Shown here piece by piece: positions 35,993 through 41,698 of a stretch of 64,000 nt of DNA. The stretch comes from Escherichia coli (GTDB lineage: Bacteria > Pseudomonadota > Gammaproteobacteria > Enterobacterales > Enterobacteriaceae), in NCBI RefSeq assembly GCF_044647545.1, contig NZ_CP172818.1, one strand, 5' to 3'. The notes below the pieces were generated by a model. That model made no database searches and was not told the DNA's origin. It worked only from the letters and a program-made list of their open reading frames with translations. Positions within the stretch are counted from its first letter, which is position 1, and each line of letters opens with the position of its first letter. The position numbers were made by a program, and so were the translations under genes.

Positions 35993-36250
35993 TTAGCGAT
36001 TATCGAGCTGAGCGCGAACTTTATTCAGCTCGGTGGTGTTGATTCGATAGGGCTGGCCATTGACGGACTTGATAAGTTTTTTGGTTTTGAGTTTTTTGAA
36101 GACGGCGAGCGTGCAGTCGGTCAGCAACAGCCCTTCGCGGCTGTAGCATTCAACGGAAGTGACGCGGCCTGAAGAATCGCGGACGTGCGCAATACGTCTA
36201 CCTTTAGCGAGAACGTGTAAGGTATGTTGTTCCTGACGGGATAAATTCAT
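35993..36250 (-). CDS. topAI: topoisomerase I inhibitor toxin TopAI (YjhX)
   Basis: 85-aa product [85 protein letters not shown]; sits 12 bp upstream of yjhQ. Confidence 0.85.
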
Positions 36251-37211
36251 ACTGAAGAACCTATTTAATCATCATGTGCAAAACGTGCAAACACACCGCG
36301 GTGTCCGCATTCGATTTCGGCGCATTGATAATCAGTCCGGCCTGAAAAGGTCGGGGAACTGATTATCGGATGATTACATTCTCCAGCATCAAAGCCTCGG
36401 GTTGAGTTGAAAGGTATTTACGGAGCGAATATTAACACGTAGTTATAGGAGGGATATGTTTCAGTAGAAAAAGTGTGATGTACTTTGGAAATTGAATGCC
36501 AACCCATTTACTGGAAAAGGCAGATGACACTGACGAATGCATGTTGAAGTACGCCTGAAATGGCCTCATCGGCTTTTCCCTTCGGGAGATTATTCTCCTT
36601 TTGTTAAATCCAGAACATAAATATGCTCACCCATCTTCGATGCTTGAAAAATTGAAGCCAATCCTGATAAGTAATTTTTTTGAAAGGGTATTTTCCGGAT
36701 TCACACCGGCTTTGATGAGTGAAAAACCGTTCTCTTTTATTCAGTCAATCGTGGCGGTAATTGCTTCAATTGCATATCCCTGGCGAGCATAAGCGGGACT
36801 GATGGTATAGCCGAGCCAAAACACATCGCATTGCTGACGTAAATAGATATCACCAATCAAAACCTGCGTCATTTGTTGACAATGGCCAATTGAATATCGC
36901 GAGCAAGTGTAAGAACTCCCAGCAAGACCCTGTAAATAATTCTGTGTAACTGCCCACGATTAAAGGTGGTCGCTCAGGCGGTCACCGTATTCGATAATAA
37001 ATGGGTCTGGAAAAAGTGCAGCATCTGGCAGCGTAATGCAGGTAGCCCAGTTCAACTCTCACTACCAGTATGATCCCAAGTTCGAGCGCGGAATGTATCT
37101 GTATGAGCATCGTCGCTGTTTCAATAACATCATCGACTACTGTAACTCACTTTGCTATCACGGTAAGTTGCAGCCTAAAAGAGGGATGGAAAAAGGACGA
37201 TTTTCCCCGCA

Positions 37212-38228
37212 ATGGGATATTTACATATTGATGGTAGAGGCATGAAGCCAAATGGAGGGAGCCGTCATAACCCTCTTGAAGCTGAAACAATAGCAGCATG
37301 GCTGGTGGCACATAAGGATGATATAGAGCGCCATTACGGGGAACCACTGTACAAAGTTGTTGGTGTTGTGACGCCATTTTCGGCGCAGGTTAATGCTATC
37401 AAAATGTCATTGCGTAAGCTGGAAATTAATGGCAAAGACGAGCAGGGTTTACTGACAGTGGGGACTGTGCACTCCTTGCAGGGGGCGGAAAGGGCGATTG
37501 TTCTCTTTTCTCCTGTCTACTCAAAACATGAAGATGGCAGGTTTCTTGATAGCAACAGCACTATCCTCAATGTTGCTGTCTCACGCGCTAAAGATAGTTT
37601 TCTGGTATTTGGCGATATGGACCTTATCGAGATGCAGCCCGCATTTTCGCCGCGAGGGTTATTGGCAAAATATCTCTTTTCTTCAGATAATAATGCGTTG
37701 CAATTTGAGTTTCAGAAACGACAGGATTTAATTTCCGCACATACACAAATTTCAACGCTGCATGGTGTGGAGCAGCATGATGAATTTTTGAACAAGACTC
37801 TTGCCGGAGCTCAAAAGAAAATAACGATTATTTCCCCTTGGTTATCCTGGCAAAAAGTGGAGCAAACGGGATTTCTGGCATCAATGGCTTTGGCCCGTTC
37901 CCGGGGCATTGATATTACCGTGGTGACGGATAAAAACTGCAATATAGCGCATGTCGATGATGATAAGCGTCAGGAGAAACAACATCTGCTGAATGATGCT
38001 GTTGAAAAGCTCAATAAGATGGGTATCGCTACGAAATTGGTTAATCGTGTTCACAGCAAAATTGTGATTGAGGATGAAGAACTGCTGTGTGTCGGATCTT
38101 TTAACTGGTTCAGTGCTACACGGGAAGATAAGTATCAACGATACGATACGTCTTTGGTGTACCGTGGTGAAGGCGTAAAAAATGAAATAAAGGCAATATA
38201 TGGTAGTCTGGATCAACGTCAGCTTTAA
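37212..38228 (+). CDS. yjhR: C-terminal fragment of an SF1 helicase fused to a PLD-type (HKD) nuclease domain
   Basis: 338-aa ORF with helicase C-terminal motifs ([34 protein letters not shown]) and a perfect HKD motif [18 protein letters not shown]; a helicase-like reading frame continues upstream in another frame (37036..37245), so this looks like a remnant of a larger gene. Confidence 0.75.
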
Positions 38229-38810
38229 ATGTGATGAGCCGTTCATGATACAGGAGTAGTAAAGGGCATATTTTACCAATGTTAAGGCGACTTTCCGTTT
38301 TATTGCGAGTCGCCTTTCCTGATTATAAATCTTATTGTTTACCTAATCATTTTCCTTTGCATAATGCGCCTGGGATTAATGGCGGGTGCTTTTAGGAATG
38401 AAAGAAAATGCAAGCAATAATATAATAATGGCCTAATTTCTTTGAACATCATTAAGCATATCATCATCGTCTATTTGCCAGAATCCGTCGACTTATAATC
38501 GCCAGAACGGCATATCAGGACGGTGCTGCGAACGCTGTGGCCCAAAACGTTCCAGTAAACTGTGTAGATGTTCGTAGATTTCCGAGCCATAATCGAAAAG
38601 GCGCGGATGTCTATTAAGGCATCCGGCTAATCTGTAAGCAATAACAACGGTTTATGCGGTGCGCGTTTTTCACCCTTGTGCCAGATTATTATATTGGCAA
38701 TTGCCTGCTGTTCGAGCCCGCAAGTGAAGAGATATTACCTTGATCTCATTTGTTTTTTGTTGTCTACTCTGAGAACGAACAAGGACATCCCCCATGAATA
38801 AACTCCCCGC

Positions 38811-39791
38811 TCACCTTTCGCGCCAAAACTGCAAAATTGCTTCTACAAACCTGTCAGAAATAATCCCTCGACGGGCTGCCGCGCTGAAATGACTGCTTCG
38901 CAGTGCCGTCGTCCAGTTCTCCGGTGACCGGTACGCTGAACCGTAATATCCCGTGCTTAAATCGTCCGGATCTTCATCAGGCGCGTTCGTCAGTCCTCTT
39001 GCACCTTGTTGCTGGAAGTCGACGAAAATAATATTGGCTAGAACATTATTTTGATAATTGCCATAAATAGCTTCATACGCATGAGGGAAATTTTCTTTCC
39101 AGTACCAGGTGGTATCGCCGCAAAACCACGGCGCGTCAGTAATTTTATTAAGCTGAGAATGGTATTGTTTTAGATCCCTACGAAAGGCGTCAACCATATG
39201 ATTAAAGTGTTGAGGGTGTGACGCGTAGTCACTGGTCATTAAGTCAAATTCGCCTTGCATCCAGCATACGCCGAGGAATTTGTTCTGCGGATTTTTTGCC
39301 AGTGCGGCTCGCGTTCTGCTGACTAAATCCTGGTATAGCGGAGTATCCGTTCCCCAACGACAAGCATCATGGCTGGCTCCGTGCCGTTCTGAATATGTCC
39401 CTTCGCTGCCCGCGGTAAAAGCCGATCCGCCACGGCAACACGGAACGATGAGAACCCCTGCATTATCAGGAATAAAGGGCAGTAATTTCCGTGCTATATG
39501 TAGTGCCTGGCCAACGGTGCCGTACTGTGTTTGATGATTCGTTGCCAGAGGATGGTGATAACCCTGCATATCCTGAACATCGTGTGGGCAGTGAGTCAGT
39601 GGAATAATGTCGTTAAAGTGACATGACGGGCCTCCGGGATGTGTATGCGCAAATCTCGCTAATTGTTTAATTCTGGGATGAGGCGCATCTTCCTTGTCCG
39701 GTAATGGTAGTCCTTCGCCATACGCCATGGCATTAGACTGACCAGCAACGGTAAGAACATAGTAATAATCGGGCGATATTATTGCGTTCAT
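38811..39791 (-). CDS. nanS: 9-O-acetyl-N-acetylneuraminate esterase
   Basis: 326-aa product MNAIISPDYYYVLTVAGQSNAMAYGEGLPLPD...; start trimmed from ORF track 39818. Confidence 0.9.
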   Translation of the reverse strand: MNAIISPDYYYVLTVAGQSNAMAYGEGLPLPDKEDAPHPRIKQLARFAHTHPGGPSCHFNDIIPLTHCPHDVQDMQGYHHPLATNHQTQYGTVGQALHIARKLLPFIPDNAGVLIVPCCRGGSAFTAGSEGTYSERHGASHDACRWGTDTPLYQDLVSRTRAALAKNPQNKFLGVCWMQGEFDLMTSDYASHPQHFNHMVDAFRRDLKQYHSQLNKITDAPWFCGDTTWYWKENFPHAYEAIYGNYQNNVLANIIFVDFQQQGARGLTNAPDEDPDDLSTGYYGSAYRSPENWTTALRSSHFSAAARRGIISDRFVEAILQFWRER

Positions 39792-39855
39792 ATAATTTTC
39801 GCGTAATACAAATGACAAATTGATAGCAAGGCCCCTTTACCGGGGCCCTGAAGCG

Positions 39856-40962
39856 TTAGTTTTGTACTGTGACTTTATTATCCTTCACAGAAATTAAAAC
39901 TGAATCCGTCACCGCTTTGCCGCCTGCAGTTTCACCGCCAATAATTAATAAACTATTATTCCAGGGCAATGATACTCCGTAGGCCCGACCTTGCGATAAT
40001 TCGCCCGATTTATCCCATTTCCCGTTATGCCAAAGATGAATATCAGCGCTATATGATTTTTTCAGGCCTTCATGCGCATAGTTCTTACCGTTCTGGTAAT
40101 TTTCTCGTGAACCTTTGAATCCGGCCCCTCCGGCAAATATAAGTGAGTCATTGCTCATGCCTGCAAAACCGCCAGCGACGCCATCTGGTGATGCGACGGG
40201 AGCAAGCTTATTCCATTTTAAATTATTACCGGTGAAATCAAGTTCAAATACGGCATCCGTTCGCAATCCTGGTTTGGCTTCGCCATTAATAAGCCAGGTT
40301 TTATCACCTTTATTCACAACCGCCGCACCAGCCGTTCCGTACCAGGGAGATTCGCCAGCGTAACTCCATTGCTGTGTAGAGGGATCAAAAGACAACAGAA
40401 ACTTATTGAAGAAATAATCTTCTGCTTTTTTGTCAAAATAGTGGGCGTTGATTTTATCTATAGTGGTTGAATCTTTTCCAGCTTCGTTGAGATCTTCAAA
40501 ATAGCCATTGAAGATATTCTGGTTAACACCGCCAGTAACATAAGCCTTGCCGTTGTGTACAAAAGTCACATGGCCCGCCATGCCCATCGGCGCGTGCGAC
40601 ATCAATTTAACCCAGCTATTGGTTTTGGGGTTGTATTTGTGTACGTCATTAAATACCTGAGTCAAGCCCTCGCTGTTTTTGCCAATGCCGCCAAACACAT
40701 ACAGATTACCATCAATAAATGCAGAGGTTGCTTGATCTCTCGGTCCACCAGGGAATGCAGCTAACGCTGTCCATTTTTTATCTTTGGCCTGTGTATCCAG
40801 CTTGTACCATGCTGTACCTGCGCTACCTAAACCAATGTAGACAGTGTCGTTATCAATTGCTCCGGTACCACTTTTAAATGGCACAGGAGTTTCCGGTAAT
40901 ACAGACGCGTTTGCGGCAAATGAAGCCATTATGATAGCAAGCGCCGTTATTGTTTTATTCAT
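39856..40962 (-). CDS. nanM: N-acetylneuraminate mutarotase (Kelch-repeat beta-propeller, periplasmic)
   Basis: 368-aa product MNKTITALAIIMASFAANASVLPETPVPFKSGTGAIDNDTVYIGLGSAG... with signal peptide; start trimmed from 41070. Confidence 0.9.
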   Translation of the reverse strand: MNKTITALAIIMASFAANASVLPETPVPFKSGTGAIDNDTVYIGLGSAGTAWYKLDTQAKDKKWTALAAFPGGPRDQATSAFIDGNLYVFGGIGKNSEGLTQVFNDVHKYNPKTNSWVKLMSHAPMGMAGHVTFVHNGKAYVTGGVNQNIFNGYFEDLNEAGKDSTTIDKINAHYFDKKAEDYFFNKFLLSFDPSTQQWSYAGESPWYGTAGAAVVNKGDKTWLINGEAKPGLRTDAVFELDFTGNNLKWNKLAPVASPDGVAGGFAGMSNDSLIFAGGAGFKGSRENYQNGKNYAHEGLKKSYSADIHLWHNGKWDKSGELSQGRAYGVSLPWNNSLLIIGGETAGGKAVTDSVLISVKDNKVTVQN

Positions 40963-40981
40963 TGTGACTGTCTCCTGTCTA

Positions 40982-41698
40982 CTACAGTTTAAATGATACA
41001 CCAATGCGATAACTGTTTTCCGATAAATTATCTCTGCCGTTGTAAACACCCTGACGGTCAAGGTAGTCATATTCTATGTATGGCGTAATATCGGGCGTCA
41101 TATGGTATTGTAGAACAAATGCATTTTCCGTCGCCCATTTCTTATGGTTTGCATAGCGATAATCGTTCTGTTTGCTGTATAGCGTCGTTTGCCATGCGAA
41201 GGTGAAATCACTATTAATATGGTAAGTGACATATCCATCCCAACGATGAACGTTATCACGAGACATATCACCGGATAAGTCTTGTTGTCGGTAAGCTTTC
41301 CAGTCGTAACGATAGCGAATGCCAAAATTAAGATCTTTTGTCGCGTCCCAGGACAGTTTTACGTAGGGTCCGTAGCGGGTGCCGTTGCTGCTAAAATGCG
41401 TTAACATTCCCGGGCGCACCGTCCATTGATCATCAAGTTTAATCGCGTAATTAACTTCAACCTGAACATCATTGAGTGCGGCATTTTCCTTTTTATTATC
41501 ATGAATGGTATTCCAGGTATTACTTTCCATGCTTGCCCACCATCCATTTTGCCATCCCTCACTGACTTTGAGTCGAGTCTCATAGGCATGGCTTCCGCTA
41601 CGATATCCACCACGTACGTCCAGTGTCGCAGCCTGAGAAATTAATGGTGACGAAAAGCACAGTAATAATACGCCAGAAAGTATTTTAGCCTTTTTCAT
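40982..41698 (-). CDS. nanC: N-acetylneuraminic acid outer-membrane channel (KdgM family)
   Basis: 238-aa product MKKAKILSGVLLLCFSSPLISQAATLDVRGGYRSGSHAYETRLKVSEGW... ending in an aromatic beta-barrel C-terminus. Confidence 0.9.
   Translation of the reverse strand: MKKAKILSGVLLLCFSSPLISQAATLDVRGGYRSGSHAYETRLKVSEGWQNGWWASMESNTWNTIHDNKKENAALNDVQVEVNYAIKLDDQWTVRPGMLTHFSSNGTRYGPYVKLSWDATKDLNFGIRYRYDWKAYRQQDLSGDMSRDNVHRWDGYVTYHINSDFTFAWQTTLYSKQNDYRYANHKKWATENAFVLQYHMTPDITPYIEYDYLDRQGVYNGRDNLSENSYRIGVSFKL

Follow-up and report, generated by a model that had tools for sequence, protein, structure and literature searches.

The yjhR locus of Escherichia coli is very probably a non-functional relic of a type II Mokosh anti-phage gene

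Introduction

What kind of gene did yjhR of Escherichia coli come from, and is anything of it still at work? The question is raised by a 338-residue open reading frame in the 64,000-nt stretch of E. coli DNA analysed here (the window; contig NZ_CP172818.1), in which 2.1 kb around the remnant are 100% identical to E. coli K-12 MG1655. RefSeq labels window positions 36988..38228 as 'helicase YjhR; frameshifted; incomplete; missing N-terminus' and the intact form in E. coli and E. marmotae as 'helicase YjhR', and older source names are 'frameshift suppressor' and 'Putative uncharacterized protein YjhR'. The accessible portion of a preprint by Cury et al. 2022 (bioRxiv 10.1101/2022.12.12.520048) treats YjhR as a fused Mokosh and aligns K-12 YjhR to MOV10L1 and PLD6; the truncated-pseudogene status of YjhR is not mentioned in that portion. 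The K-12 YjhR in that comparison is the 338-aa pseudogene product, without the first motor domain and part of the second. In a 2026 paper, the yjhR/yjhS interval serves as a neutral integration site. The identity of the relic and its status as a pseudogene are thus already known (RefSeq annotation, Cury et al. 2022); added here are the exact breakpoint and frameshift site, intact alleles at the same locus, evidence for neutral decay and a reconstruction of the ancestral defence islet. We estimate at roughly 93% the probability that the window locus derives from a single-gene type II Mokosh anti-phage system (MkoC) and no longer functions.

Results

The remnant holds part of a helicase motor and a whole nuclease domain

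The 338-aa ORF contains about 60% of the second RecA-like motor domain and the whole PLD nuclease domain (Pfam, PADLOC), and is preceded by a segment of the same gene in another frame:

37002..38228, plus strand: yjhR pseudogene, codons 764-1171 of an 1171-aa MkoC gene, 5' truncated and frameshifted
37003..37245, plus strand: upstream segment read in the gene's own frame, codons 764 to ~828 (three-frame translation)
37212..38228, plus strand: ORF 'YjhR', 338 aa, residues 834-1171 of the intact protein
37464-37490, plus strand: SF1 helicase motif V, TVHSLQGAE (motif search)
37569-37589, plus strand: SF1 helicase motif VI, NVAVSRA (motif search)
38052-38105, plus strand: HKD catalytic motif of the PLD domain, HSKIVIED-x6-GSFN, ORF residues 281-298 (Pfam, motif search)

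In the 338-aa product, Pfam assigns residues 15-136 to AAA_12, which is the second RecA-like domain in SF1 helicases (4e-18; only model positions 81-194 of 195). Residues 195-300 match PLDc_2 (4.4e-11), and residues 277-300 match the active-site motif PLDc (1.7e-6). Together with motifs V and VI, these matches bear out the initial annotation of the ORF as SF1-helicase C-terminal motifs followed by a PLD/HKD motif. It had also named AAA_11, the N-terminal motor domain, as a domain to look for; AAA_12 and PLDc_2 are present in the remnant, but AAA_11 is absent from it, and Pfam finds this domain only in the intact allele that other strains carry. The columns of motifs V and VI are invariant or nearly so in a family alignment of 54 sequences, as are H1114, K1116, D1121, G1128, S1129 and N1131 of the HKD motif, and the window copy retains an intact HKD motif and all family-invariant PLD residues. 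The upstream segment reads on past the frameshift to a TGA at 37243-37245 and includes a 69-aa ORF (37036..37245), the helicase-like frame that had been noticed there from the start; it matches positions 752-809 of the PADLOC MkoC profile (E=3e-26), just N-terminal of the part covered by the 338-aa ORF. A crude consensus scan upstream of the ORF found no sigma-70-like promoter site.

The gene belongs to type II Mokosh

MkoC is the single protein of type II Mokosh, represented by PADLOC profile PDLC03924 with a length of 1136 (Millman et al. 2022). The 338-aa ORF matches this profile at E=3.8e-139 (463.7 bits, profile positions 812-1135 of 1136), far beyond chance, and this gives the proposed relic of an antiphage gene a precise family name. 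An end-to-end match is seen for the intact allele described below (residues 1-1169 against profile positions 1-1135, 1467.9 bits) and not for the window copy, and the same is true of the fusion of an N-terminal Upf1-like (COG1112) helicase with a C-terminal PLD domain. Walker A and the DEAxQ motif, both located 5' of the breakpoint at codon 764, are missing from the window copy; the HKD motif of the PLD domain is intact. The intact allele has the architecture that defines type II Mokosh, with an N-terminal Upf1-like COG1112 helicase and a C-terminal PLD nuclease in one polypeptide, of which the window remnant represents the C-terminal 35%. The window copy differs in having lost residues 1-763 (N-terminal domain, Walker A, DEAGQ and motif III) and in being frameshifted, and is therefore a pseudogene and not a system.

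Several related systems share parts of this architecture. Type I Mokosh (MkoA and MkoB) has the same two activities, and the remnant matches MkoA (E ~2e-18) and MkoB (E=1.4e-14) partially, but in type I the helicase and the nuclease are separate genes and MkoA has a Ser/Thr kinase domain (Millman et al. 2022). Intact yjhR, by contrast, carries helicase and PLD in one frame, its type I scores are far below that for MkoC, and Pfam detects no kinase domain in the intact allele. The eukaryotic proteins Upf1, senataxin, IGHMBP2 and MOV10L1, as well as PLD6/Zucchini of the piRNA pathway, are likewise separate polypeptides with other accessory domains. An AlphaFold model of the intact protein (mean pLDDT 89.5, pTM 0.85) has the RNA helicases senataxin, Upf1 and IGHMBP2 as its closest folds, at a sequence identity of only 11-14%. 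A sequence search for solved structures returned no close relative, the sole matches being Dna2, an RNA helicase and IGHMBP2 (E 1.5e-4 to 5e-4). The PLuB helicase-like protein, ProA, Hhe, DISARM DrmC and NucT have either an SF1 C-terminal or a PLD domain in common with yjhR. Matches of the remnant to MkoA, MkoB, DrmC, PLuB, ProA, IGHMBP2 and NucT are all weak. Measured against curated NCBIfam cut-offs, membership of the remnant in PLuB (49 vs 999), ProA (33 vs 1500) or NucT (~17 vs at least 211) was rejected, as was that of the intact allele in PLuB (74.6 vs 999), ProA (52.7 vs 1500) or Hhe (24.3 vs 2000). Assignments to IGHMBP2 and cardiolipin synthase were also discarded as sub-threshold NCBIfam matches.

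Intact alleles occupy the same chromosomal locus

Only 13 of 5,426 complete E. coli genomes (0.24%) hold the 5' part of the gene, and in all six of these that were checked the RefSeq annotation is intact. In strain 2017-02-2CC the gene spans 3,516 nt and encodes 1171 aa (L005 10659-14174); intact alleles were also identified in strain 2017.09.02CC. Two of the intact 1171-aa alleles have the coordinates NZ_AP027764.1 4330772-4334287 and NZ_AP025214.2 2317167-2320682, the latter with two HNH genes as neighbours. Window positions 37002-41000 correspond to L005 12947-16946 of strain 2017-02-2CC at 97.4% identity (BLAST), through nanS, and the intact allele lies between tRNA-leuX and nanS. Longer versions at 95% identity are found on contigs where the gene adjoins nanS, nanM, nanC and fim, as in K-12. 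The remnant had been proposed to be the 3' part of a larger helicase and HKD-nuclease fusion gene, and the 1171-aa alleles at the same locus are that gene. By Pfam the intact product contains AAA_11 (273-347), AAA_12 (795-969) and PLDc_2 (1028-1153), and its motifs comprise Walker A GPPGTGKT (294-301), DEAGQ (697-701), motif III (721-725), motifs V and VI, and HKD (1114-1131), with all catalytic motifs invariant or nearly so in the 54-sequence alignment.

An impression that no full-length form exists came from the first homologue search, which listed only matches of up to 723 aa; all of these were at most ~1.75 times the query length, suggesting a length limit in that search, and full-length forms were then recovered through contigs, genome BLAST and a representative search. 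The suggested check for full-length homologues in other Enterobacteriaceae succeeded, with examples in E. coli, E. marmotae and Klebsiella quasipneumoniae. The MkoC family comprises 1,100 clusters at 50% identity (E <=1e-30), and most of the members among the best matches listed are 1,150-1,190 aa long and align end to end.

Homologues elsewhere are accessory genes that are often broken

A paralogue at ~69% DNA identity is the best match in 862 of 5,426 E. coli genomes. In strain 4973 (L036), the sole strain inspected, it is apparently intact, encodes 1171 aa and lies in an island with tRNA-Phe, an integrase, SIR2 and a type I RM system. Homologues are also carried by plasmids of Vibrio, Agrobacterium, Pseudomonas and other genera, and no convincing close homologue was found in the phage collection searched. 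Matches to a 9.6-kb Salmonella 'plasmid' turned out to be unannotated linear contigs. Distant full-length homologues often stand alone between unrelated housekeeping genes, with different flanks in every case, as single-gene accessory cassettes do. A consistent housekeeping setting would have spoken against a defence origin; no conserved housekeeping operon surrounds these homologues.

MkoC homologues are broken by IS3, IS5, IS66 or IS110 elements in Klebsiella (L010, L011, L025-L032), Kosakonia (L012) and Escherichia sp. (P0076), and the IS-truncated Kosakonia copy adjoins an AIPR/Z1/DUF4420 cluster. Such recurrent IS hits suggest that MkoC is either a large mutational target or a gene with a fitness cost.

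A deletion from within an insertion sequence removed the 5' part

Compared with the intact allele, the window shows an abrupt onset of homology at 37002, which is the final base of codon 763. The end of the gene originally placed at 36990-38228 therefore stands and its start does not, the 12 bases before 37002 belonging to an insertion sequence. Two features mark the damage:

36925..37001, strand not assigned: IS256-family (ISEc39-like) terminal fragment, ~76 nt, matching the 3' ends of IS256/ISEc39 transposases in other genomes
37195..37196, plus strand: frameshift site, GG here against GGG in the intact and many truncated alleles, a 1-bp loss (alignment)

The promoter and codons 1-763, 65% of the protein including Walker A and DEAGQ, are lost from the window copy. 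About 42 nt from the 3' end of the transposase gene, together with the IS terminus, make up the IS256 fragment, which joins codon 764 of yjhR at its broken inner side. Because the interior of the IS is joined to the interior of yjhR, the junction reflects a deletion with one end in the IS and not a clean IS insertion. The 1-bp loss at 37195/96 accounts for the two-frame layout of the remnant.

yjhR marks the distal border of the leuX hotspot

To the left of yjhR the window carries topAI (35993..36250), yjhQ and yjhP on the minus strand, and to the right nanS, a gene layout that agrees with the reported position of yjhR next to the topAI-yjhQ pair. The accompanying view of yjhR as cargo inside an IS-rich island has to be revised. 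yjhR forms the distal, unchanging edge of the leuX integration hotspot and is not cargo of the K-12 island, since the left neighbours differ among the six checked genomes with the intact gene: varying islands, or nothing, lie between leuX and the gene. In one arrangement tRNA-leuX precedes it directly, ~300 nt away; in another a P4-like satellite is present, separated from yjhR by its own attR and by the native leuX terminator; further arrangements show a CbtA/YeeU-type island, or an island with a methyltransferase and IS elements. In strain 2017-02-2CC, intact yjhR might have belonged to the cargo of the adjacent P4-like satellite, but this was rejected, as the satellite attR and the leuX terminator separate the primase gene from yjhR, and in other strains yjhR directly follows leuX or follows unrelated islands. 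In the window the island extends from ~54 nt downstream of leuX, where native sequence is kept, to the IS256 fragment. A leuX-derived attR repeat, sought in the window to delimit the island, was not found; given this and the ~54 nt of native leuX-downstream sequence, the island is not bounded by a classical P4-type att duplication, and its left junction is no P4-type attL of the classical kind within the tRNA.

Some further observations concern the same region. For window positions 1400-4400, which contain leuX and the integrase, coverage stays below 80% in every complete E. coli genome. One MG1655 record matches positions 2816-37301 at 99.73% identity; further upstream it diverges and carries an IS2. 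On the minus strand, positions 36601-36880 hold a degraded gene for a small GNAT acetyltransferase, with just a 43-aa ORF (36741..36872) left; the annotation of other strains shows this gene whole, at 99 aa (L002 8228-8527). The P4-like satellite at leuX in strain 2017-02-2CC (L005 1-10400 / L007) encodes a 961-aa RNA-directed DNA polymerase and a 229-aa protein, both located between the integrase and the delta/psu/sid genes; the pair is probably reverse-transcriptase defence cargo in the known P4 hotspot.

HNH nuclease genes accompany the intact gene

The other side of yjhR also carries a decayed gene:

38465..38711, minus strand: N-terminal remnant of a phosphorothioate-DNA-binding HNH restriction endonuclease gene, 247 nt (BLAST to L009 10772-11019)

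RefSeq lists this segment as a pseudogene. In a 94%-identity allele group, the right side instead has an intact 290-aa phosphorothioate (PT) HNH endonuclease, which is ScoMcrA-like and scores 437 bits against NCBIfam NF045808 (cutoff 180), and a 216-aa HNH protein. The gene for the second HNH protein is deleted in the window (gap from 38711 to 38808), and both HNH genes are intact beside full-length yjhR in L009, L034 and L035. In Klebsiella quasipneumoniae these three genes recur with order and orientation unchanged, next to sugar-utilisation genes that are unrelated; MkoC is complete there, interrupted by IS3 or broken up by multiple IS elements, and the HNH genes are whole. The occurrence of this triad both at leuX-nanS in E. 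coli and in K. quasipneumoniae, with MkoC repeatedly hit by IS elements in both genera, raises the idea that the ancestral locus was a co-inherited module of MkoC (plus strand), the ScoMcrA-like PT HNH endonuclease (minus) and a ScoMcrA_N-HNH protein (plus) and not a lone Mokosh gene. We regard this as unlikely; if true, Mokosh could be functionally coupled to modified-DNA sensing, or a specific fitness cost of MkoC could drive its recurrent inactivation.

The truncated gene is widespread and decaying

The yjhR 3' part is carried by 1,707 of 5,426 complete E. coli genomes (~31%). Among these carriers, 921 (54%) have an exact copy of the frameshifted 70-mer and 665 have one of the in-frame 71-mer, and the in-frame version gives a 397-aa ORF in at least 665 genomes. 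A search with a 5' probe matched 1,294 genomes, all but 13 of them only over the last ~54 nt (~1,280 genomes), and among the matches listed every one starts at query base 947. Likewise, among the matches listed in the distant search, the truncated ones that reach the break start at query 2289, with a few starting further in. This common breakpoint shows that the truncation was a single old event that has been inherited vertically, and that the frameshift came later. The dead copy is now more than 100 times commoner than the live one (~1,700 vs 13 genomes).

These counts bear directly on two other ways of reading the remnant. The A5 run followed by GG at the shift is a slippery-looking context, and the historical source name 'frameshift suppressor' could be taken to point the same way, but a sequencing error or a programmed frameshift yielding a single 409-aa product has practically no probability: the same 1-bp deletion recurs in 921 independently assembled complete genomes and 665 are in frame, so that the polymorphism is real, and even the in-frame version is without 65% of the protein. 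The other reading holds that a domesticated fragment of 338 aa (397 aa where the frameshift is absent) is retained as a stand-alone PLD nuclease or regulator, as its intact HKD motif, its family-invariant PLD residues and its presence in almost a third of genomes, often with an in-frame ORF, would allow. The evolution of the truncated alleles makes this very improbable. Their dN/dS is 0.84-1.03, based on only 12-14 substitutions, vs 0.10-0.13 between intact alleles (Nei-Gojobori), and by parsimony the ratio of nonsynonymous to synonymous changes is 11:3 within the truncated clade vs 28:58 between intact alleles (Fisher p=0.002). Two nonsense mutations have arisen independently, Q776* (L016, strain SB0258h1) and Q892* (BL21-type L018), more than half of the carriers are frameshifted, and there are at least four independent insertions into truncated copies, by IS3, IS5, ISEc52 and IS66. 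Family-invariant positions have been substituted (N853S and Q892* in the BL21 type, H838Q in L016), the native promoter is deleted with no promoter-like site in its stead in the crude consensus scan, and persistence is explained by vertical inheritance of the one old deletion. On the strength of the dN/dS of ~0.8-1.0, the independent nonsense mutations and the IS insertions, the remnant is a dead relic that is decaying neutrally. It may have residual nuclease activity, which is conceivable because the PLD domain and its HKD motif are intact and stand-alone PLD nucleases of ~150 aa exist.

A last alternative concerns the ancestor itself, which could have been a Dna2- or Upf1-type helicase-nuclease with a housekeeping or repair role and not a defence gene. 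The lone distant homologues between housekeeping genes, the solved structures that are its only sequence matches (Dna2, RNA helicase, IGHMBP2) and a RefSeq name of merely 'helicase YjhR' are compatible with this, yet we consider it extremely improbable in view of the end-to-end match to the MkoC defence profile and the defence shown experimentally for family members (Millman et al. 2022). Moreover, the rarity of the intact gene (0.24% of E. coli) and the differing flanks of distant homologues form an accessory-gene pattern, the site is a tRNA integration hotspot beside a PT-dependent restriction enzyme, the ~69%-identity paralogue sits in the tRNA-Phe/integrase/SIR2/type I RM island, and homologues occur on plasmids of many genera. 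The reading that we prefer remains that of a type II Mokosh relic.

Discussion

The alleles that are still intact, in other E. coli and in E. marmotae, show the ancestral state of the locus and allow its likely history to be sketched. In that state a gene for the 1171-aa protein lies ~300 nt downstream of leuX, followed by the PT-dependent HNH endonuclease gene, the second HNH gene and nanS. Island DNA would have built up between leuX and yjhR in the lineage of the window, after which a deletion reaching from an IS256-family element to codon 764 took away the promoter together with codons 1-763. The reading frame that was left was later broken by the 1-bp loss at 37195/96, which left the 338-aa ORF.

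The PLD nuclease of the intact protein has a single HKD motif and presumably acts as a dimer, as is usual for PLD-family nucleases of this kind. From the family data of Millman et al. 2022, the intact leuX-locus protein would be expected to sense or translocate on phage nucleic acid with its ATP-driven Upf1-like helicase and to cleave that nucleic acid with its PLD nuclease. That study reported that Mokosh systems defend E. coli against phages and that defence is abolished by mutations in the ATP-binding site or the PLD active site. We infer a defence role of the ancestral gene from its HMM membership and from experiments on other Mokosh systems. Since the ATP-binding motor domain is missing and in view of the published mutant data, the remnant is unable to work as a Mokosh system.

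For E. coli K-12, this means that there is no working Mokosh system at the yjhR locus. Censuses and structural comparisons in which K-12 YjhR serves as a fused Mokosh should be read with caution, as they use the last 29% of the protein, without the ATPase core. The intact alleles, for example those of strains 2017-02-2CC and 2017.09.02CC, can be cloned for tests in a K-12 background. More generally, yjhR provides a clean example of the death of a defence gene at an integration hotspot, in which the gene first lost its 5' part to an IS-associated deletion and then took a frameshift, nonsense mutations and more IS hits.
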